From Escherichia coli (GTDB lineage: Bacteria; Pseudomonadota; Gammaproteobacteria; Enterobacterales; Enterobacteriaceae), in the NCBI RefSeq assembly GCF_022846255.1, contig NZ_AP025682.1: a DNA stretch of 64,000 bases; one strand, written 5' to 3'. The notes beneath the pieces were generated by a model. That model was given only the letters and a program-made list of their open reading frames with translations. It ran no database searches and was not told the origin of the DNA. The position numbers were made by a program, and so were the translations under genes. Below, in pieces: positions 16,701 to 61,121 of the stretch; the first letter of the stretch is position 1, and each line of letters opens with the position of its first letter.

Positions 16701-17103
16701 CACAAGCCAGTGTATGCAGATAACCCGAAGCTTGCCCCAGGTTTCTTATCTTTCTTTTCCAGTAGCGAATGCCATCATTAACCAGCTTCTGTTGATGAAC
16801 ATACGGAACTTTCCAGTCAATAGAATCTAAAATTGTGTCCCATTTAGGGTGTCCGACCGTATGAGTCCGGCGGATAAACTCTGCGGCATATATGCTAAAT
16901 AGAACATCGCTATAGGAAATGAATATCGTTCTTGGATAACTACGGGGGGCATATGTACGCAGTAGTTCTGCCAAACTTTCGTACTCTGTATCAGTACAAC
17001 GGTAAGCATATAACGCCCGTCCATCAGCTCCGGATAATGAACGGCGACTAAAAAACATGTTAAGCCATTGCAAAAGTGGGTTAACTGGAGTTTTCACAAG
17101 CAA
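13744..17103 (-). CDS. druH: 1119-aa protein without recognisable motifs, translationally coupled to the giant helicase (DruH-like position)
   Basis: Long uninterrupted ORF; stop overlaps helicase start by 10 nt; no catalytic motif recognised by eye; position and size fit the DruH partner of type III Druantia, but the assignment is by context only. Confidence 0.45.
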   Translation of the reverse strand: MLVKTPVNPLLQWLNMFFSRRSLSGADGRALYAYRCTDTEYESLAELLRTYAPRSYPRTIFISYSDVLFSIYAAEFIRRTHTVGHPKWDTILDSIDWKVPYVHQQKLVNDGIRYWKRKIRNLGQASGYLHTLACEGGLPIRMIENESGYLITYFRRIYQALRGQASQYPAAKIAQELGDTIPVTMQNELVYEIAGEFCETLCRLLSEHPPQSSDPVSALRKLSPDWHLQLPLVLPEANAAEIVRRLLSQSSEIRSASSLQVERIWVDVDDSWYCDARFRFPAIMRTEQLTSLFECNIQPEQTRLIISGKWRNGGARLAMLSRYEQQDWRVELLPIAMQKLSGADAMAEISLSLHEGPILLGHTIPKGGYELTEELPWVFEAMNESESQLKLVGMGSVSSRLNALFISLPKNSHLDISGEGEFDIPRLLKNSERSLTKISGVFSVVLHDGAVCTIRTQQLYDSAIEYYIKSTEVELVKSDYPVHRAWPKIGWKKDLQYGIVPEKELFWRSIRSGNNAWYSVASEMPKGQIEVRRIVNDEVLFSGKVVVLPTDFDINIIPESAQQGIIMLSGITDTRIDKYSNNEKVTLKSDYSQNECAIYYNSSEMLENTVDLRVSWKDGSNLKLLLPKPVSGGRFVTHDGSVHFDGVASIAHLHGIDAELLTISCAGRGYLNIELLDENPVAEKFRYLHADLPLLSGCNDKLKQISLYENYNLLNAMLACAWNSNSTLCVDFYSDRFGKDKATLSIKRYDGSFIEHDQGLLVDIKNSVVFPANRIDELVVDAISLKDPGLHISLLKKDEFAYDLSALNVQDSPWLIVGKLDGTARIAPVIKWGLPVLQTNDLLLNALCEADSEQRKKYFNELIFEIDNNPLQNYCCLLTEYIKKYKMNNGLSLLDLDLFRGISSNYRVVVQLLISSCLSGDSDTIYDIQEELPFSWGWIPVSIWKDVFQKCWAYLEKQINDKTLALHILQPFIAFMNHRAHIDRRLAPIANMLLTYGELLPAGCNVLPTVSREQFNEAKQMLLRNPDSFGRISIFPKELWSSAITPELKSVFNKLWIEDKYHSRLEKRFNLMLVAALLTQKDNNLIHQLSALFEFHYQQAPQQLGVIYQYYFEQAGVCH

Positions 17104-17314
17104 CCTGCCTTCCTTTGATACAATTCGTAACAGGTTACTATCATCATAAAAAAGCTCAACCCGATGAACTCGCTAAAAATGAGACAAATCATTTATATCT
17201 CGAAAAAACTTGTTACAATCATGAGCGCTACACCGAACTTAACCATATAAATTATGTGTGTTTTGTTTATTTTTTAAACAATTACAACTATCCATTATTT
17301 ACACAGGTATCAAA

Positions 17315-18967: not shown

Positions 18968-18973
18968 TCGATC

Positions 18974-19681
18974 ATGGATAAGATTATAGGGAAACAATTA
19001 CCTAAAAAAGATCAAGATAATGAACACTGGGTATCCATGTCAGACCTAATGGCAGGGCTGATGATGGTTTTTATGTTCATATCTATTGCTTATATGCACT
19101 ACGTACGTATTGAAAAAGAAAAAATTAAAGAAGTTGCCGTAGCCTACGAGAATGCTCAGTTACAGCTTTATAATGCTCTGGATATTGAGTTTGCAAAGGA
19201 TTTGCAAGACTGGGATGCAGAGATCGATAAGCAGACTCTGGAGGTTCGATTTAAATCACCGGATGTTTTATTTGGCTTAGGAAGCATAGAGCTTAAACCA
19301 AAGTTTAAACTCATTCTTGACGACTTCTTTCCTCGCTACCTAAAAGTTCTTGATAATTATCAAGAACATATTACTGAAGTCCGCATTGAAGGTCACACAA
19401 GTACTGACTGGACTGGAACAACGAATCCTGATATTGCTTATTTTAATAATATGGCACTATCACAAGGTCGTACACGTGCAGTATTACAATACGTTTATGA
19501 TATAAAAAATATCGCGACACACCAACAATGGGTTAAAAGTAAATTTGCCGCAGTAGGTTATTCATCTGCACATCCCATTCTTGATAAAACCGGCAAGGAG
19601 GATCCTAATCGCTCTCGTCGTGTCACCTTCAAAGTTGTAACAAATGCCGAGTTGCAGATTAGAAAGATTATTCAGGAGTAA
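18974..19681 (+). CDS. zorB: ZorB-like MotB/OmpA-family protein (single TM plus peptidoglycan-binding domain)
   Basis: N-terminal TM helix (LMAGLMMVFMFISIAYM) and OmpA_C-like motifs (IEGHTSTD, NMALSQGRTRAVLQY, NRSRRVTFKV); 7-nt gap after zorA. Confidence 0.7.
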   Translation: MDKIIGKQLPKKDQDNEHWVSMSDLMAGLMMVFMFISIAYMHYVRIEKEKIKEVAVAYENAQLQLYNALDIEFAKDLQDWDAEIDKQTLEVRFKSPDVLFGLGSIELKPKFKLILDDFFPRYLKVLDNYQEHITEVRIEGHTSTDWTGTTNPDIAYFNNMALSQGRTRAVLQYVYDIKNIATHQQWVKSKFAAVGYSSAHPILDKTGKEDPNRSRRVTFKVVTNAELQIRKIIQE

Positions 19682-19684
19682 GAG

Positions 19685-20788
19685 ATGAAATTATCTATCG
19701 ACATTTCAGAACTTATTCAATTAGGGAAGAAAATGTTACCAGAAGGAGTCGATTTTTTTCTGGATGAATCCCCTATTGACTTTGATCCTATAGATATTGA
19801 GTTATCCACGGGTAAAGAAGTTAGTATCGAAGATCTTGACCCTGGTAGCGGGCTTATCTCTTATCATGGCCGCCAGGTTCTTTTATATATTAGGGACCAT
19901 TCAGGGCGTTATGATGCGGCTATCATCGATGGCGAAAAAGGAAAACGTTTTCATATTGCCTGGTGCAGAACTCTTGATGAAATGCGCCATAAAAATCGAT
20001 TTGAAAGGTATCATGCAACTAACCGCATAGATGGTTTATTCGAAATTGATGATGGTTCAGGTCGGAGCCAGGATGTTGATTTACGGGTATGTATGAATTG
20101 TCTGGAACGACTTAATTACAAAGGAAGTATTGATAAACAAAGGAAAAGAGAGATTTTTAAATCATTCTCATTAAATGAGTTTTTTTCAGATTATAGTACC
20201 TGTTTTCGTCATATGCCTAAGGGTATCTATGACAAAACAAATAGTGGGTATGTCGAAAACTGGAAAGATATATCAAAATCAATACGAGAAAAGGCCAAGT
20301 ATACTTGTAATGATTGTGGTGTGAATTTATCAACCGCCAAAAACTTGTGCCATGTCCATCATAAAAATGGCATCAAATATGATAATCACCATGAAAACCT
20401 TCTTGTTCTGTGTAAGGATTGCCATCGTAAACAGCCCCTCCATGAAGGTATATTCGTTACCCAAGCTGAGATGGCTATCATTCAACGTTTACGTTCCCAA
20501 CAAGGGTTATTAAAAGCCGAATCCTGGAATGAAATATATGACCTGACTGATCCATCAGTACATGGTGATATTAATATGATGCAACATAAAGGCTTTCAAC
20601 CTCCTGTTCCTGGGTTAGATCTTCAAAACTCAGAACATGAAATTATTGCAACCGTAGAAGCAGCATGGCCAGGCCTTAAAATTGCAGTTAACCTTACTCC
20701 CGCCGAAGTCGAAGGATGGAGAATATATACCGTGGGTGAGCTGGTTAAAGAAATACAAACAGGAGCCTTTACGTCAGCAACGTTGTAA
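19685..20788 (+). CDS. zorE: ZorE-like HNH endonuclease
   Basis: HNH motif CNDCG...CHVHHKNG...NHHENLLVLCKDCH; immediately follows zorB (4-nt gap); MotA/MotB/HNH trio matches Zorya type II gene content. Confidence 0.7.
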   Translation: MKLSIDISELIQLGKKMLPEGVDFFLDESPIDFDPIDIELSTGKEVSIEDLDPGSGLISYHGRQVLLYIRDHSGRYDAAIIDGEKGKRFHIAWCRTLDEMRHKNRFERYHATNRIDGLFEIDDGSGRSQDVDLRVCMNCLERLNYKGSIDKQRKREIFKSFSLNEFFSDYSTCFRHMPKGIYDKTNSGYVENWKDISKSIREKAKYTCNDCGVNLSTAKNLCHVHHKNGIKYDNHHENLLVLCKDCHRKQPLHEGIFVTQAEMAIIQRLRSQQGLLKAESWNEIYDLTDPSVHGDINMMQHKGFQPPVPGLDLQNSEHEIIATVEAAWPGLKIAVNLTPAEVEGWRIYTVGELVKEIQTGAFTSATL

Positions 20789-24498: not shown

Positions 24499-25554
24499 CT
24501 ATATAAATAAACCTAAAGAAGCCACACCTTCTTGGGGTAGACGCTGGTGGATCGCCAGAAGAGTCTTCATTTCTCGTAAAACAAACTTTGGCATCCAGCC
24601 ACACTGTAACTCGAAATCAAACCGTTCGTTGTTGGCGTTCCCTTCCGCTGTCATCAGGCCATTTAAGATCAGTTTATTATAAAGCCATTCATCTAAATGC
24701 AAGCTGATACCGTAATCATTAAGCAACTTACAACGCAACTGATGAGCGATTTTTAAGCCCGCAACATCCAGATCGCCAAAATAAAGTAGTTGTTCTACCT
24801 GTTCGACCTCAAGGAGTTGTGACACGCACTCCGCCTGACCGGAAACTTTGTTACCTGCGCCATAAATGACCAGTGACCAGCGAGTCTGTGCTCGATTAAG
24901 TTGGCATAGCCGATAATACACATCGGAGTTTTCAACAATGATAGCCGGAAGATCATGGCAACGAGATGACTCATACGGTAAAGGCGGCGCACGTCGAAAC
25001 GCGCCCATATCAGCCAAAGTCAGAGTGACATGCTTCCAGCCATCAGGTGGCAAGGAGTCCAGAGCTTTTTCGTCACCAAATATAAGCAGAGACCGCTCAC
25101 GATGTCCAAGCAAGCCCGGGAATAGCGACTTGTCGCCCCCGGTTTGGCGAAAAAGATATGTATTCAGCTGTTGTAAGCGTGCCTTGATTGGCTGGGTAAG
25201 TTGTCCTGTAATACGTCGGGCCAACCAGGGATGCCAGGCTATTTCTGATGTTGTCTTCGTAGGAACGATGGCACCTTCGTAAACAAAAGTACTTGGCAGG
25301 CTCATACCCCGCCAGTAACGCTGCCAACTCGCTTTGTGCTTAGGTTGAGCCCGCCAGTCCCTTTCAAGCAGTTGCGTAACAGCCTGACTCAGCAAATCAG
25401 GCACCTCCTGGCTCAAGGCCTCTTGATTGTGTGCGCGTAATACCTCATCCAGCACCGCATTAGCTTTCACTGTACGCACGGCCTTACCAGCGGCAAGACG
25501 ATGTTTATTGGCTGTCGACTCCAGTCGGGATAGCCAGATCATTACGCTACTCAT
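24499..25554 (-). CDS. jetD: JetD-like Toprim-domain protein (Wadjet)
   Basis: C-terminal Toprim-like acidic motifs (AIIVENSDVYY; LYFGDLDVAGLKIA); last gene of a four-gene minus-strand operon following an SMC-like ATPase. Confidence 0.65.
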   Translation of the reverse strand: MSSVMIWLSRLESTANKHRLAAGKAVRTVKANAVLDEVLRAHNQEALSQEVPDLLSQAVTQLLERDWRAQPKHKASWQRYWRGMSLPSTFVYEGAIVPTKTTSEIAWHPWLARRITGQLTQPIKARLQQLNTYLFRQTGGDKSLFPGLLGHRERSLLIFGDEKALDSLPPDGWKHVTLTLADMGAFRRAPPLPYESSRCHDLPAIIVENSDVYYRLCQLNRAQTRWSLVIYGAGNKVSGQAECVSQLLEVEQVEQLLYFGDLDVAGLKIAHQLRCKLLNDYGISLHLDEWLYNKLILNGLMTAEGNANNERFDFELQCGWMPKFVLREMKTLLAIHQRLPQEGVASLGLFI

Positions 25555-25566
25555 CTCATATCAACC

Positions 25567-28500
25567 TTAAATGACTGGATCGAACTGTGGCTTAGCAGCC
25601 AGAGAAGCCGCCCACAGGGCATGGCGTTCTTTATCAACGGTTACCAAATCGCGCCGCCTCAGTTTTTGAACTTTATTCAGGAAGAGATGGTTATCAAACA
25701 TTGATTGGGCGTTTTCATCCGAAATACCAGTCAGGTAGATGAGCTGGATTTTATAGGCTTTGGCCATTTGGGTTTGAATGCGCATTAGATCATTGGCATT
25801 CGATTTACCCAGCGGGTTATCGGCTAACAAGAATCCTGCACTTGAAATACCCGTATCGTACTCTCGTACTTTACCAACCGTCACAAACAGTAAAAAGGCA
25901 GATGTAAGGCGCTGTCCACCCGAACCTTCAAGTCGGGTGACAGGAGTCCATTGTGGACGGCTGGCATTCGTCTTCAGCAAACGCACCTCCAGTTCCCCTT
26001 CGCCAAATACCGACTGAACCAAATCAGCTGTCAAGGCGTCCCGATTGGGCGCTCGGGGTATCTGTCCCCTGGCTATCCACTGCTGCAAGCGGCTGCTGGC
26101 AAAACCCCTGATATCAGCGGCAACATCATTCAACCGGTCGGTCATTTTAATAATGGGCCGACCAGGCAGTACGGGGCAATCCTCAGGAATTTTGACCGAC
26201 ATCGCGCGCCTGAGAAGCTTAATCGCCCCTTCCAGATGAGCAGTCAGATGGGTGACAGTCAGATCAATCGAACGTTGGAATTGCTCGAGGCTGTCCTGCA
26301 CAGCTTCGAATACCTGCGAGATCCCTGTACCGACCCTCTCCAAATCGCCCAGCACTTCATGATAAGTTGCGATTGAGTCCAACGGCCGTAAGTATTCCTG
26401 ACTGGCTCGGGCGTCTGGATCCTTGGCCAACTCTTCTTCGATGCGTTTGCGGAATTTTCCCCAGACCGTAGAGACGCGCATATTTTGCTGTTTTAGCGTT
26501 TCATTTAAACCGGCATACACTTGGCATTGTGCAGCCAGATCGTCAGCATATTCTGTGATGCTCAGGATCCTACCAGGTAGACCTGCGGCAGAGCTCGGCG
26601 TAATGGGCTGGATCATCGCTTGAGCTGTTTTGGCGTTCTGTAGCCGCTCTTTCACATTTTCAATCTTTCTCAACAGCAGTGTCTTTTGTTCCAGTAGGAA
26701 CTTGATCTGGTGTTCAATCGCATAAAGGTTATTGACGATTTCAGCCAGAGACGTTTGGATTGCCTCTATCTCAATGGGCTTCTCTTCCCAGACAAAATCC
26801 TCGTCAAGTGCTTTACTAGCCTCCTCACAGCTTTGGGAAAATTTTTGCAGAGTTACCTGAGAGCTAATTAGATTTTGCGTGAATTGCTTTTGCTGTTCTT
26901 TGAGGCGTACGATGCTGTTATTAATTACCGTTAGCTCATTGATGGCCGCAGCTTTTACCTCATCCGGATATGTATTGTAGGTGGGTTGAGCGGTCAAACG
27001 ATCAGAGGCGTAACGTTGTGCCTGTTCAGCATCTTTCAGTTGTTGCTTGAGAACGGTCACTTGATCACCGTTGGCTGCTTCGAGCAATTTTTTGTGCGCC
27101 TGAGCAGCCATCTCATGGGCATATTCAGGGCTTCGTCCTTCCATACCTTCAGTCGCCGTAATCTCTGAATAGAACGGTTCGTTACACAGATTACTCCAGC
27201 TACCTATCTGGATAATTAAAAGGGTTTTCTCGGAGCGTTTGTTCTTCTCGAGCTCGCTCAGCCGTTCCAGCCTCTCTCTCTGGGTGTAAAGAGTGTTCTT
27301 GCTTCGCTGAATCTGTGCAGCTAACTGCTCCAGTTTCATTATCGCCGTTTCACGCTTCGCCCATTCTTTTTCTACAAAAAGACTCACTTTATCATGTGCT
27401 TTTTCTGCCTGAATTTTCTGCTGTTGGGCGTTGTTTAAACGCACCTGGACATCTCTCTTCTCGTCACGCAGTGTTTGCTCATCATGCTCAGCTTGCTTAA
27501 GTGCTGCATCAGCATTTTCCAGTATTAATAGAGCCAGCTCCCGTTGGTCAAGCAGTCCCGCCCAATGCTTACCATACTGTTCGTAATGCCGACTCCAGTC
27601 ATTCCTGAAAGATTCCAGTACTTTAAGGGCGCTCTCCGCAGCCTTCACACTGACTTCCTGCGACGCTACGGTATTCTCCAGGTCTTGCAGCCGGGTTTCG
27701 TAAGCGGCCTGGCTATATCCGTGCTTATCGGGGTTTGAGAGGACAACCTGTACTAATTCAGACGTTTCTCGGCGGAGATCTTGTGCTTCATCCAGCAAGT
27801 AAATAGCAATAGGTGCCTTCTTCCAGGGTAGGATCTCACTAATTTTATGGACCTGTTCAAACGTTACATTGTCGAGTGCGACCAGGCTCAGGTAGCGGCC
27901 AGGGTTCTGATCGATCACCGCTGCAATCTTTTGTGCATCATCGTTGTGAGCAGAGGCCAAATAGTGTGGAAATGTCCATAGCTTATCCCGTGCAATGCCC
28001 GCAGCATAAAACGCTTCAAGTGCCTCATTGACCTGCTTAGCAACCAGTTCATGTCCCGTCACCCTCAACTCGTCCAGTTCGTGCCGGGCTTGCAGTAAAC
28101 GCTCTTTCATTCCATTCAGCGTTTGAGCGTTCGCATTCAATACTTTGTCGAGCTGCAATCCACACAGCTCGCTGTGCCAACTCGTGTCTTCAATATCCAG
28201 ATCATGTCGCGTTGACGATGGCAGTTTTTGATAGGTTTTTGCTAAAAGTAAGGCACTATCCACAGCTGACTGGTGTTTTTGTTTAGCCAGAATGAGTTTT
28301 TGCTGGGCCTCACTTTTCTCAATTGATGCCTCCCGCACAACATTCAGCTGTGCTTCCAGCGCCTGCTCTTTCTGATGAAGAATTGTATTAGCCAGTTCTT
28401 CACTCTGCTTTGCATCGCGTAAGGTTAATTCCAGTCGGTATTGGGCTGCTACTGGTGTTTCATCCTTCTGGATCAACCCAGCTTCACATAATTCATTCCG

Positions 28501-30003
28501 TTGCGATTCGCCCTGAAATTTGTCTCTTTTATATCCGTCACGCTCCGTTTCCAGACCACCCAACGTCTTTTGTAGTTTATCGTATGACTGTCTGAGGACA
28601 TGGCTTTCCCTGTCCATCTGCCCTAATTCTTCCTCAAGCGTAGCCTCCTGCTGGCGATGTCTGTCGATTGCCCACTCTAATGTGCCCAAGGCTTCGCCAG
28701 CAGTACGCTCGAAAATCACCTGTAGCGGCCTTTCCGTTTCACTTTGGAATACCTTCAGATCTTCATCTGCCTGGCGGTACTCATTCAGGGCCTTAGCATA
28801 GGCTTTGTAGTCTATAGCAGCGTGAGTAATCTCAATCTGGTGCTGATTGGTATCGGCTTCGTCTTGAAGCGCATCGACTATCGCTTTTTGTTTGTCGAAC
28901 TGATGCTGCACGAGATCATATTCAAGCAGTGCTCTGCGCTTACCTAACTGCTCACGCAGAGACATCGCCTGGCCAATATGTGTTTGCAAACTATCCATGT
29001 TATCTTCAAGCTGCGTCTGTTCAACCTGAGCATCCCCGACAAAGGCTGCGAGATCGCGCATTGCTTCTCGGAAGCCATCATCCAGCAGTTGCTGCTGTGC
29101 CTGGATGCTTTCCAGCTGTTTAGCCGGATCAAGAAACGCCAGCCAGTTAGCCAGCACATCCTTCAGGAAGGACTCGTTACGACGAATCCCCTCTAACTCT
29201 CCCTGACGCTCAACTTCATGCGCTACCAGTTCCCGCAGCCGCTCAGCCGCATCTTTAGACATGGTGCAGGCGAAGAACGCGCCAAGGAAATCATGTTCAG
29301 TTTTGTATTCGATAAAACGGGTCAGGCCACCTTCTTCGGAGTTGAAGGTCACCATTGTTTTGATAAGATCAACGTTAATTTGTTGTTCCAGTAAAAATGC
29401 GCGCCACTCGTTCTGTCTGGTGGTTTTACGCCAATGCATACCGCCTTCACTACCGGCCTTGAGATTAAGCCAGCTATCAAAACTGCGCAGGCTATTGGCA
29501 TAGGGGCGCAGCTCAGAATTGCGTTCCGCGCGGGAATAAGAAGGGACTTCATCAAACGGCGCGCCCATCAGGGAGTCGGGCGCATCACAAATAAACAGTG
29601 TCCGGTCAACATCATCTCCATTACGCTGATGAGCATGTCCTAGTAATAACGTTTGTCCTGATTCATTGACCATCTCAACCAAAACAACAGAGAGTTCTTT
29701 ATAGAAGTAATTGCGGTAGTGGTATTCACTCTGGCGATGATTTGCCAGATATTGGGTGAAGTCACTAACGGACGGCTCAAAAATCGATAACAGCAGCGCG
29801 ATGTAGGTCGACTTACCACCCCCATTCACAAGCTGCTGATAAGTACTGGTCACCACCTTCGCATTCCTGACGGGCGAGCGCAGACCTTCAACAACAGGGC
29901 TACTGACCGCTTGAGACAGGCCAATATAGTCCAGTGTGAGGTCCTTGTAGAAAGCTTCTTCATGGCCTGCACCATCCATATAAACCCGTTTAATCAGCCA
30001 CAT
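25567..30003 (-). CDS. jetC: JetC-like SMC/MukB-family ATPase (Wadjet)
   Basis: 1478 aa; N-terminal P-loop (VNGGGKSTY), very long coiled-coil middle, C-terminal signature/Walker B region (LLADNPLGKSNANDL...IQLIYLTGISDE). Confidence 0.7.
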   Translation of the reverse strand: MWLIKRVYMDGAGHEEAFYKDLTLDYIGLSQAVSSPVVEGLRSPVRNAKVVTSTYQQLVNGGGKSTYIALLLSIFEPSVSDFTQYLANHRQSEYHYRNYFYKELSVVLVEMVNESGQTLLLGHAHQRNGDDVDRTLFICDAPDSLMGAPFDEVPSYSRAERNSELRPYANSLRSFDSWLNLKAGSEGGMHWRKTTRQNEWRAFLLEQQINVDLIKTMVTFNSEEGGLTRFIEYKTEHDFLGAFFACTMSKDAAERLRELVAHEVERQGELEGIRRNESFLKDVLANWLAFLDPAKQLESIQAQQQLLDDGFREAMRDLAAFVGDAQVEQTQLEDNMDSLQTHIGQAMSLREQLGKRRALLEYDLVQHQFDKQKAIVDALQDEADTNQHQIEITHAAIDYKAYAKALNEYRQADEDLKVFQSETERPLQVIFERTAGEALGTLEWAIDRHRQQEATLEEELGQMDRESHVLRQSYDKLQKTLGGLETERDGYKRDKFQGESQRNELCEAGLIQKDETPVAAQYRLELTLRDAKQSEELANTILHQKEQALEAQLNVVREASIEKSEAQQKLILAKQKHQSAVDSALLLAKTYQKLPSSTRHDLDIEDTSWHSELCGLQLDKVLNANAQTLNGMKERLLQARHELDELRVTGHELVAKQVNEALEAFYAAGIARDKLWTFPHYLASAHNDDAQKIAAVIDQNPGRYLSLVALDNVTFEQVHKISEILPWKKAPIAIYLLDEAQDLRRETSELVQVVLSNPDKHGYSQAAYETRLQDLENTVASQEVSVKAAESALKVLESFRNDWSRHYEQYGKHWAGLLDQRELALLILENADAALKQAEHDEQTLRDEKRDVQVRLNNAQQQKIQAEKAHDKVSLFVEKEWAKRETAIMKLEQLAAQIQRSKNTLYTQRERLERLSELEKNKRSEKTLLIIQIGSWSNLCNEPFYSEITATEGMEGRSPEYAHEMAAQAHKKLLEAANGDQVTVLKQQLKDAEQAQRYASDRLTAQPTYNTYPDEVKAAAINELTVINNSIVRLKEQQKQFTQNLISSQVTLQKFSQSCEEASKALDEDFVWEEKPIEIEAIQTSLAEIVNNLYAIEHQIKFLLEQKTLLLRKIENVKERLQNAKTAQAMIQPITPSSAAGLPGRILSITEYADDLAAQCQVYAGLNETLKQQNMRVSTVWGKFRKRIEEELAKDPDARASQEYLRPLDSIATYHEVLGDLERVGTGISQVFEAVQDSLEQFQRSIDLTVTHLTAHLEGAIKLLRRAMSVKIPEDCPVLPGRPIIKMTDRLNDVAADIRGFASSRLQQWIARGQIPRAPNRDALTADLVQSVFGEGELEVRLLKTNASRPQWTPVTRLEGSGGQRLTSAFLLFVTVGKVREYDTGISSAGFLLADNPLGKSNANDLMRIQTQMAKAYKIQLIYLTGISDENAQSMFDNHLFLNKVQKLRRRDLVTVDKERHALWAASLAAKPQFDPVI

Positions 30004-30005
30004 AC

Positions 30006-30902
30006 TTAAATCTCCGTCAAGCGTTGCGTTTCTGTGGTTCCAGTTGTAACTGGACGTTCATTGAGCGAAGGAAACTCCAGGGTATCTGCTAATGCTGCAA
30101 GATCGCTTTCAGCTAAATCGGACGACCGTTCTTCTACGGCTGGACTGATGCTCATGACAAAGCGCACCGTCTCTTCGATGCCAGTATGGCGCAGATAATG
30201 TTTGAGTTTTTGGGTCGGATACCAGTCGGACTCTCCCGACAAACTGCTGTCTTCGGCCAGAAAGCCTTCCTCCTGCAGCAGTTGTATCCAGCGCGTTGCC
30301 ATTTCTGTTTGCGAGCGAATACTTGAGACACGCCCTACCTTTTCGTCGTGAATACGGGGAATACGTTCTTCCTGCACAAACCTGGCCGCCATAAGTAGGC
30401 CATCTACGGTATCGTCACCCTCGGCCTTGCGCTGGGCAATCACCTGGTCGGCAACATTATTGAGCCTGGCTACCACCGAGGCTGCATTAATGGCGTTACT
30501 CTGACCGAACTCGACACGAACGGTGTCTGGAGTTGGAAACAAATCAGCCAGCAACGCAATCAGAGTTAAGCCTGCAAACAGGCGCTGTTCTTTCCGTTCC
30601 TTACCCTGTTGCTCAGCCATTGTTTCAGGTAGCAAGCGTTTGTTCAGCCAACCCAAAGATGGGGAAAACGGACCTCGGCCATCTGCAGCCAGTAATACCC
30701 CGTAGGTCTCATGAATCCCGAGATACCGCAATTTCATACCTGTCGCGACGCCACGGATAATCTCTGTGAACAGGGCATCACCTTGCAGATCAAGAGCACG
30801 TTGAATCAGCTCATCCCCCATTTTATATCCCAGTGAATTCATAATTGCCTGCGTGGCAATCTCGGCGTAGCGTTTAGTTTGTTGATGCGCGTTGTCGTAC
30901 AT
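30006..30902 (-). CDS. jetB: JetB-like (MksE-like) subunit (Wadjet)
   Basis: 298-aa ORF translationally coupled between jetA (4-nt overlap) and jetC (3-nt gap); assignment by size and operon position. Confidence 0.55.
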   Translation of the reverse strand: MYDNAHQQTKRYAEIATQAIMNSLGYKMGDELIQRALDLQGDALFTEIIRGVATGMKLRYLGIHETYGVLLAADGRGPFSPSLGWLNKRLLPETMAEQQGKERKEQRLFAGLTLIALLADLFPTPDTVRVEFGQSNAINAASVVARLNNVADQVIAQRKAEGDDTVDGLLMAARFVQEERIPRIHDEKVGRVSSIRSQTEMATRWIQLLQEEGFLAEDSSLSGESDWYPTQKLKHYLRHTGIEETVRFVMSISPAVEERSSDLAESDLAALADTLEFPSLNERPVTTGTTETQRLTEI

Positions 30903-30904
30903 AA

Positions 30905-32371
30905 CTACTCCTCAAAGGGGTATAAGGGAGCAACCGTTAACAGTTTGATATTGTTAGCCCGCCAGAGCGTTGTTTCGATAGCGCCGTCTATCTCCACTTC
31001 TATTGCGGGATCGCTGTTAGCTGCCAGGCTGCCAATATGGAGTAAACAAACCTGTTGCTCTTGTTCGGATAATTCTTCGCCCTCATAGGCGTCAAAAACA
31101 TCTCTAAAGCTCACATGCCCCCAATTCTTCAATCGGTCACTAACCCAATCGCTGCATTTTTTAATGACAGATTCAGGGATACCTCGCAGGTTGGTTTCAA
31201 TAGCTACAGGCTGATCGGTGAGGTCCTGTATCTCATGTGGAAGCGCCTGTTCAAATCTATCGAGATAAAGGTTCAGCAGCGCCTCAAGGTCAAACAGAAT
31301 GTGCCGATCATCATCCTGTCTTCGGGGAGCCAACAGGCGTGCGGTGAGATCATCGATTTCCTTTTCGACAGTGTCGGGGGAATGAGACAGCAAGGGCTTG
31401 AGTGCACCTTTTTCCAGTGTTTCCCGAAAGAGGGTATTATCTCTGGGAATAATGAGTTTCAGACGAGCTCGCTCAAAATCTTTATTCACATCCAGTAAGC
31501 AGTCTTGATAGCGCTGCGTAAAAGCGCAGACCTCAGCAAAAATCTCCTGTGCTCTACGTAGCTTATTTAATTTGTCGGGATTTAATTTCGAAATTCCTTC
31601 AACCAGCATTTCGGTAATGGCCGACATTGAGTTCTGGATATGTTCCAAAACCTCTCGGGTTTTATCAAAGGAATCATTGAGTACGGGACGGATATCGTGT
31701 GCATAAGATGCACTCAAATCACCAGACTGGGCGGCACGCACTTTCATCCGCATTCCAATCAGATATTGCTCCAGTTGCCGCTGTGTTGATTGGATTTGGT
31801 GTACTGCCTTGTCGATCTCTCCGCGACGGATCGTTTTAAGCGTGCGCCAGGCCAGAATCGCAGCGCGTTCTATCGGCGTTTCATCCAAGCGCAGGGTATA
31901 GAACAACATTCCTTCATCAGTCAGCGACCAGAGAATATCATCTGAGCCGGATAGCTGGTCATAGCGTACCAGACGGACTATCTGCTCTTCGGAATGCGTT
32001 CGTTGCGAGAAATCATAATAACGGAGGCGGAAAGGATCTTTGATCGCCACAAAAATCTTGCTGGCCACTTGTGCGTAGTCGGGTTCTTCTTGTCCCGGAT
32101 AGGCTTCATTGAGGTGCCCAACCAGACATAACTCCGCTTCCTTACGCGTCATTCCAGGCCGGCGCTCGCGGTCAGCATAATAAAGCATGGCGTCAAAGAG
32201 ATACATGATTGCCGCCAGCGCATCAAGCTCAACACCATCGAACGGATTTCGCTGAAGGGCGCTATATATTGAATCCAGCGTCCGCACGACCAGCAAGGCG
32301 TGAGACTGAATAGACAGCTCACGACGTGCCATTGATTCATTACGAGCCTGCTCCAAAAACCCTAGCGACAT
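30905..32371 (-). CDS. jetA: JetA-like (MksF/kleisin-like) subunit (Wadjet)
   Basis: 488-aa ORF, first gene of the operon; assignment by size and position upstream of JetB/JetC/JetD. Confidence 0.55.
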   Translation of the reverse strand: MSLGFLEQARNESMARRELSIQSHALLVVRTLDSIYSALQRNPFDGVELDALAAIMYLFDAMLYYADRERRPGMTRKEAELCLVGHLNEAYPGQEEPDYAQVASKIFVAIKDPFRLRYYDFSQRTHSEEQIVRLVRYDQLSGSDDILWSLTDEGMLFYTLRLDETPIERAAILAWRTLKTIRRGEIDKAVHQIQSTQRQLEQYLIGMRMKVRAAQSGDLSASYAHDIRPVLNDSFDKTREVLEHIQNSMSAITEMLVEGISKLNPDKLNKLRRAQEIFAEVCAFTQRYQDCLLDVNKDFERARLKLIIPRDNTLFRETLEKGALKPLLSHSPDTVEKEIDDLTARLLAPRRQDDDRHILFDLEALLNLYLDRFEQALPHEIQDLTDQPVAIETNLRGIPESVIKKCSDWVSDRLKNWGHVSFRDVFDAYEGEELSEQEQQVCLLHIGSLAANSDPAIEVEIDGAIETTLWRANNIKLLTVAPLYPFEE

Positions 32372-32417
32372 AACATTCTCCCTCTGAGACGGAAGCCACT
32401 ATAGTACTCCCCTGCCA

Positions 32418-32440
32418 ATTAAGCAAAGAAACTTTGCTTA
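32418..32440. promoter_or_regulatory. Perfect palindrome in the jetA/regulator divergent promoter region (candidate operator)
   Basis: ttaagcaaag-aaa-ctttgcttaa (10-bp arms, 3-bp spacer) followed by a T9 run; lies 47 bp upstream of jetA and ~105 bp upstream of the divergent regulator gene. Confidence 0.4.
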
Positions 32441-32546
32441 ATTTTTTTTTATAGCAATGTTATTTGTTTTGATGTCATTCGCCTTCTATACTCAGTCGGT
32501 ATATCAAACCGCAATTGATTAACCTGCAAATAAGAATAAAACTGAT

Positions 32547-33440
32547 ATGTACTACTCAAAGTTTCTTGAGAAACACAAATCCCCCCTCAGCCACGCACAA
32601 TGGTTGCGCTTGCGCTATATTGAGCGCCAGCTACTGTGGGAACGAAAAGTCACTTCGCGCATGATTGCTGAAGAGTTTGGCGTCTCGGCGCAACAAGCTC
32701 GTACTGATGTAAGAACCTATATGGAGGTCGCTCCAGGCAATGCTATTGAGAAGGGGGCCGGCCGAAAAGGGTATTTCCCCAGTACGACGTTTACGCCTGT
32801 TTTGCTGGGAGACAACGATCTGGTCTGGCGTGCGACGGTAGAATTTCAACCGCCGCAAGCGGCCCACGCGCAGGAAATCCCGCTCATCCATCGCGCCGTG
32901 CATAGCCGCACGCTGGCAATTTTTTTGTCAGCAATCGAACAGAAAGGACAAGTAAAAGTGACTTATGCGTCAATGGAAAACCCGGAAGGCATATCTCGTA
33001 CACTAAGCCCTACGGTAATTATCACCGTTAACGGGCGTCAGCATGTGCGAGCCTATGACTGGGGAAGTTCGGCGTTTAAGGACTTTGTTTTGGCGCGATT
33101 TCTGGACTCGCCGGAACTGATTGTTCCTGCACCCGCCCCGCCACGCAAAGATACCGCGTGGGAGGTCATAATCCCCGTGCGTTTTATCGCAAATCCAACA
33201 CTAAACAAAGCGCAACAAGAGGTAATTAAGCGGGACTATTTACTTGAACCCTCTGAATTCAACATTCGTGCACCAATGATTTTTTATTTATGCCCTGAAA
33301 ACAATCTGCCTAAAACAGATGATGAATATGCACAAGCTACTGACGCCAGCAGCCACGGCCCCTTTATCTACCCTGTTCTAGCTGTGCACGCCCAAACAGG
33401 GGAGCCTATTCATAAGTACCGCCATGCAGGTGAGAGATAG
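32547..33440 (+). CDS. HTH transcriptional regulator with WYL-like domain (BrxR/CapW-like)
   Basis: HTH segment (SRMIAEEFGVSAQQARTDVRTYM) followed by WYL-like core (VRAYDWGSSAFKDFVLARF); divergent from jetA. Confidence 0.45.
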   Translation: MYYSKFLEKHKSPLSHAQWLRLRYIERQLLWERKVTSRMIAEEFGVSAQQARTDVRTYMEVAPGNAIEKGAGRKGYFPSTTFTPVLLGDNDLVWRATVEFQPPQAAHAQEIPLIHRAVHSRTLAIFLSAIEQKGQVKVTYASMENPEGISRTLSPTVIITVNGRQHVRAYDWGSSAFKDFVLARFLDSPELIVPAPAPPRKDTAWEVIIPVRFIANPTLNKAQQEVIKRDYLLEPSEFNIRAPMIFYLCPENNLPKTDDEYAQATDASSHGPFIYPVLAVHAQTGEPIHKYRHAGER

Positions 33441-33559
33441 ACATTCTGTTTACTAATAATTTATAGCCATTTTCTGCTCCTGCATCAGAGATATGATGCA
33501 GGAATATTAAATACCAGCCACCTATAAATTATGATTTATTAATTTCTGATTCAGTTAAA

Positions 33560-33850
33560 TCCCTCTGAAAATAGACCCGTTTTAGTTCCATGCATCTTTA
33601 GAAATTCCGACCAAATAATGGGGTCGGCAAACATCTATTTGAGACGTTGGTTCTCATCCTCAAGATCCTTGATTATTTTAATATCAGAAGATTCCATACC
33701 GCCGTATCTGGACTTGCAGTTGTAGTAAGTGGCTTAAGATAAGCCGGCCTCCCGGCAGACATCTTTAACAGTTTGCCCGTATTCAAGCGATTTAATCACG
33801 GCGATAATCTGATTCTCAGTAAAAGGGACTTTACGCATAGCGATCTCCTT
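33560..33850 (-). mobile_element. Degenerate IS3-family transposase OrfA fragment
   Basis: Minus-strand ATG at 33838 with AGGAG RBS encodes MRKVPFTENQIIAVIKSLEYGQTVKDVCREAGLS then a stop; a shifted frame continues with a leucine-zipper-like ...KDLEDENQRLK...; no OrfB follows. Confidence 0.4.
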
Positions 33851-33948: not shown

Positions 33949-34818
33949 TCAATCAAGAGGGATGGTCCACATTGACGTATCAAAATCGATCTCTGACCAG
34001 CGAGCAAAACGTAGCTCACTGGAGCGAATAAAGATAAGCAGAGTGAGTTCCGTTGCCCAGCGGGTTAGCGGCCTGCCGGTATAGCCGTCTATTTTCTCAA
34101 GTAACTCAGGGATGCGCTTTAACTCCAGCGCCGGACGATGCTGTCGATTACTGGAAGCAACCGCCCCCGCCATCTCTTGTGCCGGGTTATAATCAATTAA
34201 TCCACTTTGCACTGCATAACGCATGATGGCCGTGGTGCGCTGTTGAAGGCGGGAAGCCACTTCAAAACGTCCAGATTTCTCCACGGCTTTAATGGGAATT
34301 AACAGATCGCGGGTGCCCAGTTCAGCAATATTGCGAGCAACAATTGTTGGGAAGATATTGTCCTCCAGGCTCTTTTTTCCACGATTAGCATGATCTTCCG
34401 ACCATTTTTGGTTGGTTACGAGCCACTCTCTGGCAACCTTCTCGAAAGTAATAATCTCTTTCGCCTGCTCTTCTTTCACAGCACGTTTATGCTCACGAGG
34501 ATCGATACCAGCAGCGACCAGCTTTCTGGCCTCTTCCCTTTTCTTCCGCGCATCCGCCAGCGAAACATCCGGGTAAACGCCGAACGCCATCAAATGTTGT
34601 TTACCACCAAAACGGAAACGAAATCGCCAATACTTTGAACCGCCAGGTTTTACAAGTAAAGACATGCCGTCGCCGTCAACAAGTGAATACTCTTTCTCCT
34701 CAGGTTTTGCAGGACGAACTTTAGTATACGTTAGGGCTATAGTGGTCTTCCTTCCATTGGTATCTCGTGAGTATACAAGCAATATCGAATCGGCAAATAT
34801 ACTTATAAGTATACTCAC
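33949..34818 (-). pseudogene. P4-type tyrosine integrase, C-terminally truncated (intB-like remnant)
   Basis: Residues align with the N-terminal two thirds of the intact integrase at 51593-52840 (GSKYWRFRFRFGGKQ..., RLQQRTTAIMRYAVQSGLIDYNPAQ, LTLLIFIRSSELRFARWSEIDF) but end at ...WTIPLD before the catalytic region. Confidence 0.75.
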
Positions 34819-35685: not shown

Positions 35686-37371
35686 ATGTTTAAAATTATG
35701 AATGCCCATAGTTTAGAGATGAGAAAAGAGTTAGGAGCATATTATACTCCAAGTGCTCTTAGTCAAGTGATGTCAGATTGGGCAATTAGAAGACCAACTG
35801 ATAAAATACTTGAGCCAAGTTTTGGAGGCTGTGGCTTTTTAGAAAGCTGTGAAAAGAGCCTCATGGAGATAGGCTGCATAAACCCAATGGAAAATTTATT
35901 TGGGGTTGATGTAGACCAAAAAGCCTTTGATACTCTCAAAAAAAAATATGGGCATTTATTAATAAAAAAACATTTCATTTTAAGTGATTTCATTAACGTA
36001 TTTCCAAAAGATTTTGGCATTGAAGATTTTGAGGTTATCATTGGGAACCCTCCTTATATCTCTATGCATAATATGAGTTATGAACAAAGGAAGTCCTGTG
36101 AAAAAGTTTTTGCTGACTCACCTTTTAAAACAAAAACATTAGGACGCAATGCAAGTCTTTGGGGGTTTTTCTTACTCCATGCATTAAGCTTCATTCGAGA
36201 AAATGGACGAATAGCGTGGGTATTACCGAGTAGTTTTTTAAATGCCTATTATGCGAAAGAGCTTATAAGAATTTACAAAAATCATTTTAACCATCTAAAA
36301 ATAATAAAGATAAATGAAAGACTTTTCAAAAATGAAGGTGCCGATGAAATGTCAGTACTTTTTTTATGCGATGAGTTTCACAGGACACCTATCAATAATG
36401 GATACGTTTCAATTGGATTTGCTGACACATTAAATGAACTAACCAGCATAATGACTGGAACTAAAGAAAACAAATTAAATAGCTCTGAAAATTACAAATA
36501 TAATATATTAGATATTGACACATTAAATGTGATATCGTCTATAACAGAACATAAGTACAGTTTAAAAATACAGGATATTGCTGATATAAAGATTGGGATG
36601 GTAACCGGCATGAACAACTTCTTTATATTGGATCAAAATCAAATTTTAAAACATAATTTAGACAATAAACATTTTAGACCAGTTATTTCACGATTTTCAC
36701 ATTTGAAGGGAATTCACCACACATTAAAAAGACATACGAAGTTAATTGCAGACAATAAAAAAGGATTGCTATTACACGTCAGTCCAGATGATTTATATGA
36801 AAAACATAGTCCGTTGAGAAAATATTTATCACAAGTTGATAGAAAAGAACGAGTCAAAAACCGCACATTCAAAAAACGAAAAAAGTGGTTTCAACCAGAT
36901 GATGGTATTTACCCAGACGCATTTTTTTCATATATGGTTCATGAGTTTCCCAGAATGATATTAAATAAAGGGAAAGTTAACTGCACTAACTCAATACATC
37001 GTATCTTTTTCAAAGATATAGCATCTAATAAATTAAAAAAAGCATGTTGCATATCTCTTTTATCAACATTTTCACAACTTTCTGCCGAACTTGAAGGTCG
37101 GTCATATGGCTCAGGTGTGCTAAAAATAGAGCCTACCGCAGGAAAGAACATATCATTCTTAATTAAAGATGATTTAATACACGAGTTAAGCAACTTAAGT
37201 AAAGAAATAGATCAATTGCTTTTAAATAATGAAACAAGCAATGCCACTGCTTTAGTTGATAAGTTTTTTGTTGATAAGGGACTAATTAGCTTAGATGAAT
37301 TGAAAAGTCTTAAAAAAGGGTTATTCAGATTAAGAAAAGATCGATATAAAGGGGTCAAAAATTATGAGTGA
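35686..37371 (+). CDS. N6-adenine DNA methyltransferase (Eco57I-like gamma-class) with C-terminal extension
   Basis: Motifs GAYYTP, ILEPSFGGCGFL (motif I-like) and IIGNPPYIS (motif IV, approx 36044-36060); 561 aa; first gene of a tightly overlapping four-gene operon. Confidence 0.8.
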   Translation: MFKIMNAHSLEMRKELGAYYTPSALSQVMSDWAIRRPTDKILEPSFGGCGFLESCEKSLMEIGCINPMENLFGVDVDQKAFDTLKKKYGHLLIKKHFILSDFINVFPKDFGIEDFEVIIGNPPYISMHNMSYEQRKSCEKVFADSPFKTKTLGRNASLWGFFLLHALSFIRENGRIAWVLPSSFLNAYYAKELIRIYKNHFNHLKIIKINERLFKNEGADEMSVLFLCDEFHRTPINNGYVSIGFADTLNELTSIMTGTKENKLNSSENYKYNILDIDTLNVISSITEHKYSLKIQDIADIKIGMVTGMNNFFILDQNQILKHNLDNKHFRPVISRFSHLKGIHHTLKRHTKLIADNKKGLLLHVSPDDLYEKHSPLRKYLSQVDRKERVKNRTFKKRKKWFQPDDGIYPDAFFSYMVHEFPRMILNKGKVNCTNSIHRIFFKDIASNKLKKACCISLLSTFSQLSAELEGRSYGSGVLKIEPTAGKNISFLIKDDLIHELSNLSKEIDQLLLNNETSNATALVDKFFVDKGLISLDELKSLKKGLFRLRKDRYKGVKNYE

Positions 37372-39673
37372 AGATATTCTTTTTTTGAAGGATAAGATGA
37401 AAGCCCTCCTGGATAATGAGGCTCTCGATTATGATAAAGTATTAGAAACAGCAGTAAAAATCACCGAAAAAGACAACAACAATATTAGATTTTCTGTAGA
37501 TGCGAATTTAGTTAGAAGATTAGGTGAGCAGTTAGTCGCTAAAAAAACTACTGCTGTCAGTGAATTGGTGAAAAATGCTTATGACGCAGATTCGACATTA
37601 GTAAATGTATATTTCGAATTGAACGAAGCAAATCCTCGAATAGTCATATTCGATGACGGCACAGGTATGTCAAAGGAAGATATTATCAATGGATTCATGC
37701 GAATAAGCACAAGTGAAAAAGAAGATAACTCTGTTTCAGAACGATATCAGAGACTAAGAGCAGGTAGAAAAGGTATTGGGCGTTTTTCTACACAGCGATT
37801 AGGAAATTATTTAAAAATAATTACCAAGCAAGAAAATGAAGAGTTAGGATATTTAATAGAAATTAACTGGCAGCAGTTTTCAAAAAAGAAAAATATATCC
37901 TTCATTGCTAACACTATCTCAAAAATCGATGTGGATTTCATTCATGGAACAAAAATAATAATAGAAGATCTGAATGATAAAGATTGGTCTGATGGGAACA
38001 TAAAAACGGCTTATAAATATATTAAGAGCATTATAAATATTGCCCCAAGCGAGACAGATCCAGGTTTCCAAGTAAAGTTCTATTATAAAAATGCCAATGG
38101 CTATGAATTAGTTGCAGATGAGAAAACTGAAATTTTTTCTGATAGTGATGCTCATATTACAGCAACACTTGAAAATGGAAATGCTGTAGTGAGAGTTAGC
38201 AGTGAAACCCTTGGCATAAAAAATGAAAGCATAGATGTATGGTATGATGAAAAAAATAACATACGAAAATTCTCACATATAAACTCTCCAGTAAAGCTTG
38301 ATGCATACTATTTCTCATTAGCAACAGTTAACTCCAGAAAACAAGCGGCATATTTACGTGAAAATGGCGGAATAAAAATCTATCGAAATGGATTCAAGGT
38401 TTCTCCTTATGGAGAGCAGTATGATGACTGGACGGCTCTTGATGACTCGGTTCGAAGGAGAAAGATATTACCCCCTCATGGTAATCAAAACTTCTTTGGA
38501 CACGTCAAAGTTGAAGACCTAAATGGAATAGACTTTGAAGAAACGTCCTCAAGGGAAGGTCTGATTCATACCGATGCCTTTCAAGAACTTCGCCTCTTTG
38601 TATATAAAGCACTGACGGCTGCGGTAATAAGAATTAGTGAAGCCAGAAATATAAAAATAAATCCAAATGACCGTAGCTATGTTAAAGAAACTAAACCAAC
38701 AATATCAGTCAAAGATAAATTAAATATTGTATCTGAAACGATAAGCTCGGTTAGTAAATTGGTAGATGCAGCAACATCTGTTGATGACGTTTCAAGTGAT
38801 GGTGTCATTAATAACATTGAAGATAAAAGTATAAGAAACAAAATTATTGAAGATCTCCATGAAGCCGCAGATGAGCTAAAACAAGCGAGTGTGATATCTC
38901 AATCTTTAATCGATGAAATTGAGCTTCTTAGAGTGCTTGGCGCTATGGGCCTTGCTATTGGTGAGTTTACACACGAAATAAATTTATCAATAACAAGTTT
39001 GAGTATTAACGTTCAAAACCTTAAACAGTCTAAATTATTAGAGGAAGATAGAGACTCTGCTCTAAATAGCCTTGAAAATAATATTGCAACATTAAAATCA
39101 TTTACTAAATTTTTTGACAGTACTATACGTGAGAATGTAAACAGAAATAAGAAAGTTATTGAGATAAGAGACTCTATTGAGCCATTTTATGAATCGATGA
39201 AACCAATAATAGAACGCAAAGGAATTCAGTTTGCAATACATTATGAAGGTTATGAACTTTTTACGAAGCCGATTCATGTTTCAGAGCTATATTCTGTATT
39301 TATAAATCTCTTTACGAATGCATATAAAGCAATACTTCGTTCTGGAACAAATCCACGAAAAATGTCTTTAACTGCGAAAAAAGATAGTGAAGATATAATT
39401 ATCCGATTCGAAGATAGCGGTGATGGAATTGAACCTGCAAATAGAGAAAGAGTTTTTGAGCCTTTCTATACAACAAGTACACCATCAGGACCTTTTGAAA
39501 GTGATGATTTATCATTAAAAGGAATGGGATTGGGGTTATCAATCGTACGTGATCTCGTTGAATCCATGTCTGCAGAAATATCTATAGTTGATGCATCCGA
39601 TGGTTTTACAACGTGCTTTGAGTTGAGAATTCCAAAAGCTGATGATAAGGAAATACCAGATGACATCTATTAA
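37364..39673 (+). CDS. Dual Bergerat-fold ATPase: N-terminal MutL/HSP90/MORC-like GHKL module plus C-terminal histidine-kinase core (HisKA-like H-box + HATPase_c)
   Basis: N-terminal motifs ELVKNAYDAD (approx 37562-37591), DDGTGMS, GRKGIGRF; C-terminal H-box GEFTHEINLSITSL (approx 38961-39000), N-box LFTNAYKAIL, G1 EDSGDGIE, F-box FEPFYTT, G2 GMGLGLSIV; no obvious TM segment; start overlaps MTase stop by 8 nt. Confidence 0.7.
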   Translation: MSEDILFLKDKMKALLDNEALDYDKVLETAVKITEKDNNNIRFSVDANLVRRLGEQLVAKKTTAVSELVKNAYDADSTLVNVYFELNEANPRIVIFDDGTGMSKEDIINGFMRISTSEKEDNSVSERYQRLRAGRKGIGRFSTQRLGNYLKIITKQENEELGYLIEINWQQFSKKKNISFIANTISKIDVDFIHGTKIIIEDLNDKDWSDGNIKTAYKYIKSIINIAPSETDPGFQVKFYYKNANGYELVADEKTEIFSDSDAHITATLENGNAVVRVSSETLGIKNESIDVWYDEKNNIRKFSHINSPVKLDAYYFSLATVNSRKQAAYLRENGGIKIYRNGFKVSPYGEQYDDWTALDDSVRRRKILPPHGNQNFFGHVKVEDLNGIDFEETSSREGLIHTDAFQELRLFVYKALTAAVIRISEARNIKINPNDRSYVKETKPTISVKDKLNIVSETISSVSKLVDAATSVDDVSSDGVINNIEDKSIRNKIIEDLHEAADELKQASVISQSLIDEIELLRVLGAMGLAIGEFTHEINLSITSLSINVQNLKQSKLLEEDRDSALNSLENNIATLKSFTKFFDSTIRENVNRNKKVIEIRDSIEPFYESMKPIIERKGIQFAIHYEGYELFTKPIHVSELYSVFINLFTNAYKAILRSGTNPRKMSLTAKKDSEDIIIRFEDSGDGIEPANRERVFEPFYTTSTPSGPFESDDLSLKGMGLGLSIVRDLVESMSAEISIVDASDGFTTCFELRIPKADDKEIPDDIY

Positions 39674-41506: not shown

Positions 41507-41771
41507 TGTATCAAAATCTGTTAACCATCTCCAATTACGAATAGCAATATTTATATAAAACTAATTTTTTATTTTAAACAACTTCAGCAAGGGCTAACTC
41601 TCAGCATCTCCTTCGGTGATACTTTGAGTTGCTCCTTGTTTTTTCGCCCTTTGGTTGAAAAAATTAAAAGCAAAACCAACCCTATACATTGACTTTTTCA
41701 GCATCTATCATATAAATAAAATAAGCATAATGGACATGCTTATTTTACTTTACTATATGAAAGGAGTTCAT

Positions 41772-61016: not shown

Positions 61017-61085
61017 CACTACTGCAATATATTGAATTTTCATGATCTTTCAGGCATGAACGAAACACACTTTGCTAACAATAAT

Positions 61086-61107
61086 AAAGGGAGCTTTCGC
61101 TCCCTTT
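61086..61107. terminator. Bidirectional intrinsic terminator between convergent yjgR and lptG
   Basis: aaagggagc-tttc-gctcccttt hairpin with A-run 5-prime and T-run 3-prime. Confidence 0.7.
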
Positions 61108-61121
61108 ATTCGTTCATTCGG

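Follow-up and report, generated by a model that had tools for sequence, protein, structure and literature searches.

The closest described counterparts of the locus analysed here are the operators of the defence-system repressors BrxR and CapW. BrxR of Acinetobacter sp. NEB394 (7T8K) binds a 25-bp 10-5-10 pseudo-palindrome that overlaps a predicted -35 element (PMC9122589); the protein contacts 11 bases per half-site, those at ±6/7 in a base-specific manner, and over the AT-rich centre the minor groove is narrowed, whereas substituting positions ±10 makes a negligible difference (PMC9122589). The BrxR of Escherichia fergusonii pEFER acts in repression at an 11-5-11 repeat of 27 bp in total (R-BOX1/R-BOX2), and the same study catalogued BrxR homologues beside Wadjet systems and reported that 193 of 347 homologues have inverted repeats in the 200 bp upstream (PMC9122601); homologues next to Wadjet were also remarked on in PMC11662680. 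CapW has palindromes of 19-24 bp in the promoter region common to divergent CBASS and capW genes (10.1101/2022.01.04.474952), and it leaves double-stranded DNA when its WYL domain binds single-stranded DNA (PMC11662680). In the literature searched we found no study on Wadjet regulation, on BrxR operators beside Wadjet, or on their effect on Wadjet.

The window, by which we mean the whole 64-kb (64,000-nucleotide) stretch of Escherichia coli DNA that was analysed, is a dense defence island. It encodes a DrmD/BrxH-like SNF2 helicase (4348-7206), Druantia type III (DruE3/DruH3; 7430-17103), Zorya type II (ZorA2/B2/E2; 17258-20788), a phage-integrase fragment (33949-34818), and a type II methyltransferase with a restriction-enzyme-like gene (35686-39673), as well as a type III Wadjet operon on the minus strand, in the order jetA3-B-C3-D3. 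Its first gene, jetA (30905-32371), matches the PADLOC JetA3 model over its full length (1130 bits), jetC3 (25567-30003) and jetD3 (24499-25554) match the JetC3 (3370 bits) and JetD3 (806 bits) models, and jetB (30006-30902; 298 aa), which has no PADLOC model match, was assigned by position only. The genes that follow jetA (24499-30902, minus strand) are presumed to be regulated with it. The stretch is present in 65 of 5426 complete E. coli genomes, always on the chromosome, and in the one relative examined in this respect, strain CFSAN061771, the island adjoins a tRNA-Leu gene and ahr/yjgR.

Divergent from the operon is brxR (32547-33440, plus strand), which by its sequence matches encodes a BrxR/CapW-family protein of 297 aa with wHTH-WYL-WCX architecture. 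A PF13280 WYL domain covers residues 122-187, the PADLOC WYL model matches at 9.9e-16, cluster relatives at 76-97% identity carry PF26109, PF13280 and PF26107 (WHD_BrxR, WYL and BrxR_CTD), and RefSeq annotates the protein as a 'BrxR family helix-turn-helix transcriptional regulator'. Acinetobacter BrxR is its closest solved relative (7T8K, E = 1.5e-28), followed by 7TB5 (2.5e-23), the CapW structures 9C5G (3.2e-17) and 7TB6 (5.2e-17), and the pEFER BrxR, which is a distant relative only (7QFZ, E = 1.7e-13); each of these matches spans roughly residues 10-260. The recognition helix, GVS(A/P/L)QQAR, is nearly invariant among the aligned regulators of the Wadjet-linked clade. The RWHVR motif of the WYL domain, which in the family makes ssDNA contacts and holds the allosteric tryptophan, reads RQHVR (R164-Q-H-V-R168; 33036-33050), with both arginines, the histidine and the valine kept and the tryptophan replaced, by Q in the Wadjet-linked clade and by L in the distant clade; because of the glutamine, the allosteric switch of this BrxR may differ.

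The presumed binding site of this protein, which we refer to as O1, is a 27-bp perfect palindrome at 32417-32443 (no strand assigned), with an AAA centre between 12-nt arms at 32417-32428 (AATTAAGCAAAG) and 32432-32443 (CTTTGCTTAATT) that a repeat search found to be 100% complementary and 3 nt apart. A sequence-only reading had described a perfect 23-bp palindrome and a nine-T tract between jetA and a divergent WYL-type regulator. The JetA3 match and the WYL domain agree with that placement, and the palindrome does exist, but at 27 bp it is larger than described, an outer A:T and T:A pair having been missed; the T9 run is likewise real (32442-32450), its first two T's lying within the right arm. 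The palindrome is non-random: perfect palindromes with arms of at least 12 nt and a loop of at most 8 nt occur three times in the window against a mean of 0.017 in first-order Markov simulations of it, only 1 of 60 of which had any such palindrome. Its centre is AT-rich (AAGAAACTT) and lies 117 bp upstream of the brxR ATG, inside the 200-bp upstream range of BrxR/CapW-type sites. Around the dyad centre at 32430 we define a predicted operator core, GCAAAG-AAA-CTTTGC (32423-32437, no strand assigned), whose half-sites occupy ±2 to ±7.

Conservation of this core was assessed in 15 orthologous jetA-brxR cassettes from at least 12 genera, 14 of which were scanned for the core and for promoters; the loci came from Photorhabdus, Pseudescherichia, Serratia, Brenneria, Pectobacterium, Zobellella, Halomonas, Oceanimonas, Aeromonas, Endozoicomonas, Carnimonas, and three metagenome contigs. 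Wherever the locus is intact, jetC-jetB-jetA lie divergently upstream of brxR, and the identity ranges of the regulators (76-97%) and of the JetA3 homologues (74-96%) match, indicating that the cassette is inherited as a unit. Of 14 loci, 13 have GCAAAG-N3-CTTTGC, with two mismatches at most, between 117 and 127 bp before the brxR ATG, and the Pectobacterium cassette, which was added later, reads ACAAAG-TAA-CTTTGT. Mean column identity is 0.87 in the core, 0.73 in the whole intergenic region, and 0.69 in the outer arms. The core is one of a series of conserved islands, the others being the jetA ribosome-binding site, CACTATAG, GCAATGTTATTTG, TATACT, and parts of the brxR leader, and between them the intergenic sequence drifts. 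Positions ±2 to ±6 of the palindrome are invariant and G:C is kept at ±7 in most loci, with the right half-site more conserved than the left, which overlaps the predicted jetA -35. The presence of the core also tracks the recognition helix: it is kept in the Wadjet-linked clade, and in a second clade of regulators, 36-40% identical and with a different helix, GCAAAG-N3-CTTTGC is absent upstream.

The palindrome stands in a fixed register with promoter-like hexamers. A relaxed sigma-70 scan of the alignment (-10 TANNNT with at least 4/6 matches, -35 with at least 3/6, spacer of 16-18 bp) identified exactly two promoter-like positions common to 14 of 14 orthologues, in the same columns, and the left arm of the palindrome lies on the predicted jetA -35 in all 14, although a strict consensus scan of 31900-33000 returned no promoter sites. 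On the minus strand, the predicted jetA promoter comprises a -35 TTGCTT (32421-32426), a 17-bp spacer, and a -10 TATAGT (32398-32403; mean column identity 0.95), with a predicted start at about 32391, which is 20 nt ahead of the ATG of jetA (32371); we read GGGAG, from 32382 to 32378, as the ribosome-binding site. The predicted brxR promoter, on the plus strand, comprises a -35 TTGTTT (32464-32469), a 17-bp spacer, and a -10 TATACT (32487-32492) in which T1, A2, A4 and T6 are invariant, with a predicted start at about 32499. The invariant letters in both predicted -10 elements are those important for a -10. Relative to the predicted jetA promoter the palindrome extends from about -52 to -26, with its centre at about -39, and relative to the predicted brxR promoter from about -82 to -56, with its centre at about -69. 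It therefore falls outside the predicted brxR core promoter, and autoregulation of brxR would not be explained by the palindrome; since both predicted starts are outside the palindrome as well, neither predicted mRNA contains it.

The brxR side of the region contains the best conserved block of all, GCAATGTTATTTG (32454-32466, no strand assigned), which is non-palindromic, covers -45 to -33 of the predicted brxR promoter, and has a mean column identity of 0.91, the top-ranked 15-bp window among 14-16 orthologues. This block might extend the -35 region, act as a weak second site for BrxR, or bind another factor; read as a second site it gives GCAATG-TT-ATTTGT, with 9/12 half-site matches, which is not significant alone. 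On the minus strand it also reads as a -10-like TAAnnT.

Compared with the described systems, the palindrome shares with the Acinetobacter BREX site dyad symmetry, a length of 25-27 bp, an AT-rich centre, and overlap with a predicted -35. Invariance at ±2 to ±6 and the occurrence of natural variation in E. coli at ±10 accord with the Acinetobacter contact map: G:C at ±6/7, conserved here, corresponds to the base-specific contacts there, and both sites tolerate variation at ±10. The two half-site sequences are unrelated, and the key contact residue differs (SRQQ in Acinetobacter, SAQQ here); the spacing is 12-3-12 rather than 10-5-10, and brxR here is divergent from Wadjet type III, whereas in Acinetobacter it is the first gene of the BREX operon. 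The pEFER site shares the inverted repeat and the total length of 27 bp, and dimer binding and repression of the defence genes are features of pEFER, but its 11-5-11 repeat is imperfect and sits downstream of the -10 as a roadblock. Like CapW, the regulator is divergent from a defence operon, shares with it a promoter region that holds one palindrome, and has the same protein architecture; unlike the site described here, the imperfect palindromes of CapW overlap the -10, not the -35, the system regulated is CBASS, and the RWHVR tryptophan of CapW's conformational switch is a glutamine in our protein. The palindrome sequence did not appear in the portion of the supplement text of PMC9122601 that was searched.

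We consider it likely, judging by sequence and by analogy, that the palindrome is the primary operator of a divergent BrxR-family repressor that holds Wadjet low until a WYL-sensed signal releases it. The sequence-only reading had proposed an operator for the adjacent regulator as one of two possibilities, and as a predicted site this proposal gains from the conserved core, from the overlap with the predicted jetA -35 in 14 of 14 cassettes, and from a geometry like that of proven BrxR/CapW sites. In the model we envisage, the two winged-helix domains of a BrxR homodimer would sit on the half-sites GCAAAG and CTTTGC, with the AT-rich centre between them; the left half-site being the predicted jetA -35 hexamer, bound BrxR would exclude RNA polymerase and jetABCD would be kept low. 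A stress signal at the WYL domain, which by analogy with CapW and BrxR could be single-stranded DNA, would then release the dimer and raise Wadjet expression. Binding, the transcription starts, the direction of regulation, and the inducing signal are what we infer here, and the release of CapW by single-stranded DNA is likely the appropriate model for induction at the Wadjet locus. A BrxR/CapW-type operator for Wadjet type III, as predicted here, would be expected within the known behaviour of this regulator family.

Wadjet is usually treated as a constitutively expressed anti-plasmid system. The locus provides a handle on whether a BrxR-type stress-sensing repressor gates the expression of Wadjet type III, and it offers an operator consensus, GCAAAG-N3-CTTTGC, together with a predicted promoter layout. 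It also comes with natural operator variants, namely T:A versus C:G alleles at ±10 and a G>T allele of the core in E. coli Z226-7. As jetABCD, brxR, and the control region form one cassette in at least 12 genera of Gammaproteobacteria, a result obtained in E. coli should be widely transferable.

An alternative that shares the binding site is that BrxR acts at the palindrome as a class II-like activator of jetA, its ligand-bound state switching Wadjet on. With the dyad centre (32430) about 39 bp ahead of the predicted jetA start, and a -35 (TTGCTT) that agrees with the consensus at only 3/6 positions, the layout would suit an activator; WYL-domain activators also exist (DriD, PafBC), and with the W-to-Q change in RWHVR this clade is not a textbook CapW. 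We nonetheless regard activation as unlikely, because the protein groups by sequence with the wHTH-WYL-WCX repressors BrxR and CapW, every tested member of this group represses (PMC9122601, PMC9122589, 10.1101/2022.01.04.474952, PMC11662680), and dsDNA binding by CapW is abolished on ligand binding.

The palindrome could also be mainly promoter architecture, with back-to-back -35 elements (TTGCTT on each strand) that are contacted by RNA polymerase only. TTGC occurs in both half-sites, the TTG of a -35 is part of the best conserved bases (CTTTGC), and a conserved TTG in each half-site is also expected of a -35, such that part of the conservation could reflect the promoter and not the operator. 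A second plus-strand candidate (TTGCTT, 18 bp, TATTAT/TGTTAT) does occur in some orthologues, but its partner -10 is present in only 5 of 14 loci, with variation (G/A/T) at the critical second position, and the brxR promoter candidate found in 14 of 14 has another -35 (32464-32469). The conserved G/C at ±2, the A-tract at ±3 to ±5, and symmetry that extends to ±13 in several lineages go beyond what a -35 needs, and make an explanation by promoter elements quite unlikely.

Other evidence bears on the perfection of the palindrome itself. Over a 451-bp stretch CFSAN061771 differs from the window at two positions only, 32420 T>C and 32440 A>G (12171 and 12191 in locus L001); these are the mirror positions ±10, and the CFSAN061771 palindrome stays perfect (AATCAAG...CTTGATT). 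This strain and 17 others are the closest relatives, at 99.6% identity, and the base-by-base reading refers to CFSAN061771 only. Its BrxR protein is 100% identical to that of the window, with no substitutions in brxR against 32 in the 7.9-kb operon. Elsewhere, Pseudescherichia is half-converted at ±10 (C on the left, A on the right), Pectobacterium has compensated changes at ±7 and ±8 (TATACAAAG-TAA-CTTTGTATA), and the outer arms of Carnimonas are entirely different yet symmetric (CATCAG...CTGATG). Over 16 sequences, 82% of pair cells were complementary, compared with 28-52% when one arm was slid by 1-3 columns, and double-sided changes were seen in 7 of 12 pairs, counts that can be inflated by related sequences. 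Because the regulator is identical, the E. coli pair at ±10 cannot be put down to co-evolution with the protein, and covariation of the outer arms with an identical regulator runs against the expectation of simple protein readout.

The dyad symmetry is evidently under active maintenance of some kind. Candidate explanations for the E. coli pair are template switching in the palindrome and selection on its symmetry or structure. Replication template switching within palindromes is a known mutational route, and the mundane alternative is that such switching keeps the two arms identical. The other candidate is that perfection is itself functional, in that the element could extrude as a hairpin or cruciform between the divergent promoters and serve, for instance, as a switch that responds to supercoiling or exposes single strands and is read by an ssDNA-sensing BrxR. 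This would explain joint changes in the arms with the regulator unchanged and, if true, would tie the expression of an SMC nuclease that senses topology to the local structure of the DNA, but we give it little credence.

Least probable among these alternatives, and in our judgement very improbable, is that the hairpin and T9 run act as a nucleic-acid structure, either as a Rho-independent terminator or insulator that stops plus-strand transcription, antisense to jetA, ahead of brxR (the sequence-only reading had likewise proposed a terminator, there as insulation of the Wadjet promoter), or as a hairpin or cruciform selected in its own right. A scan for terminator-like elements did flag the site, which combines a 12-pair stem with the T9 run and folds stably as RNA (-11.3 kcal/mol, z = -3.8, 0 of 200 shuffles as good) and as DNA (-9.7 kcal/mol), and the compensatory arm changes despite an identical regulator, like the wholly different but symmetric outer arms of Carnimonas and Pectobacterium, are what a selected structure would predict. 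Only 3 of the 12 stem pairs are G:C, and there is no T tract after the hairpin when it is read on the minus strand. The terminator or insulator is unsupported because neither flanking gene ends here; both start here, and upstream on the plus strand there is only jetA antisense, with no gene or predicted promoter in 31900-33000 that feeds into the hairpin. The predicted mRNA starts also both lie outside the hairpin, and Rfam gave no match in 32000-33700 on both strands with permissive thresholds.

Neither the T tract nor the stable hairpin is retained across lineages. The T-run has a mean column identity of 0.55 in the aligned orthologue intergenic regions and is absent from Photorhabdus, Endozoicomonas, Pseudescherichia and others; it is lost or interrupted in most orthologues and in most of the E. 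coli relatives sampled, seven of which, when read, had T9, T8, T5AT3 or T7AT. A 71-bp query from the window matched 43 E. coli genomes, none of them identical to the window. In a fold test that covered seven orthologue sequences, four of seven were no better than shuffled controls: Endozoicomonas, Oceanimonas, Halomonas, and Zobellella form no stable hairpin (z from -0.7 to +0.6), but the core is still kept in them. Sequence that is kept where structure is not points to a protein-binding site and not an RNA element. The T9 run (32442-32450 on the plus strand; A9 on the minus strand) is probably a lineage-specific A/T tract outside the operator, judging from the alignment, and may at most act as an UP-element-like upstream promoter element or spacer, given that it falls at about -51 to -59 relative to the predicted jetA start and at -57 to -49 relative to the predicted brxR start. 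PurR/LacI-family sites (GCAAAC|GTTTGC), sigma-54 -24/-12 elements, and IHF sites can be set aside, as we take their spacing or conservation pattern to be unlike that of the palindrome.

Additional copies of the operator were considered and rejected. GCAAAG-N3-CTTTGC with two mismatches at most has 7 matches in the window against 4.6 expected, and only the perfect copy is exceptional. Recurrent two-mismatch matches at +104 (in brxR) and -511 (in jetA) fall on conserved codons and were taken as coding conservation. An 8-nt inverted repeat, ATAACATT / AATGTTAT (32370-32377 / 32456-32463), shows no co-variation in orthologues and was judged to be due to chance. Codons 4-7 of brxR (32557-32567; CAAAGTTTCTT) contain an exact 11-nt inverted match to the palindrome centre, and a role of these conserved codons as a second site is inseparable from coding constraint.

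Several individual loci depart from the common arrangement. E. coli Z226-7 (L022) has a G>T change at the equivalent of window position 32436 that turns the right half-site from CTTTGC into CTTTTC, a possible natural operator mutant. JetA3 homologues without brxR were found in two cases only, both rearranged or decaying, which makes them a weak test of co-occurrence. In one of them, Cobetia marina (L029), homology upstream of jetA ends just before the operator position and jetB is fragmented; the locus lacks the operator site as well as brxR, and the same rearrangement could have removed both. In the other, an Enterobacterales contig (L028), a jetA-like gene overlaps the end of tssG, a T6SS gene, and a transposase comes after it. 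Salmonella plasmids (141 records) carry a 5' remnant of jetA with 77.6% identity, and in pSZL31.1, the one record read (L002, 9118-9200), an IS26 end (GGCACTGTTGCAAA) lies 25 bp upstream of the jetA start codon, meaning that the native promoter, the control region and the regulator are gone; these jetA relatives were uninformative. In a metagenome contig (L020, 374-1621), a group II intron reverse transcriptase is encoded immediately past the 5' end of jetA; the intron has probably interrupted the Wadjet operon, with the control region and brxR intact. In Brenneria goodwinii (L012, 3001-6894), brxR not only diverges from Wadjet but also directly precedes brxA, brxB, and brxC, placing a single regulator between two systems of defence; the region before brxA yielded no second operator-like site.

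Other perfect palindromes also occur in the window. One with 10-nt arms, TCCTGCATCA-GAGATA-TGATGCAGGA (33478-33503), lies 38 nt past the brxR stop codon with no T tract, and may be the end of the brxR transcript or another binding site. The two further palindromes with 12-nt arms are at 41717-41747 (TAAAATAAGCAT...ATGCTTATTTTA) and at 61083-61110 (AATAAAGGGAGC-TTTC-GCTCCCTTTATT), the latter resembling a two-way terminator.
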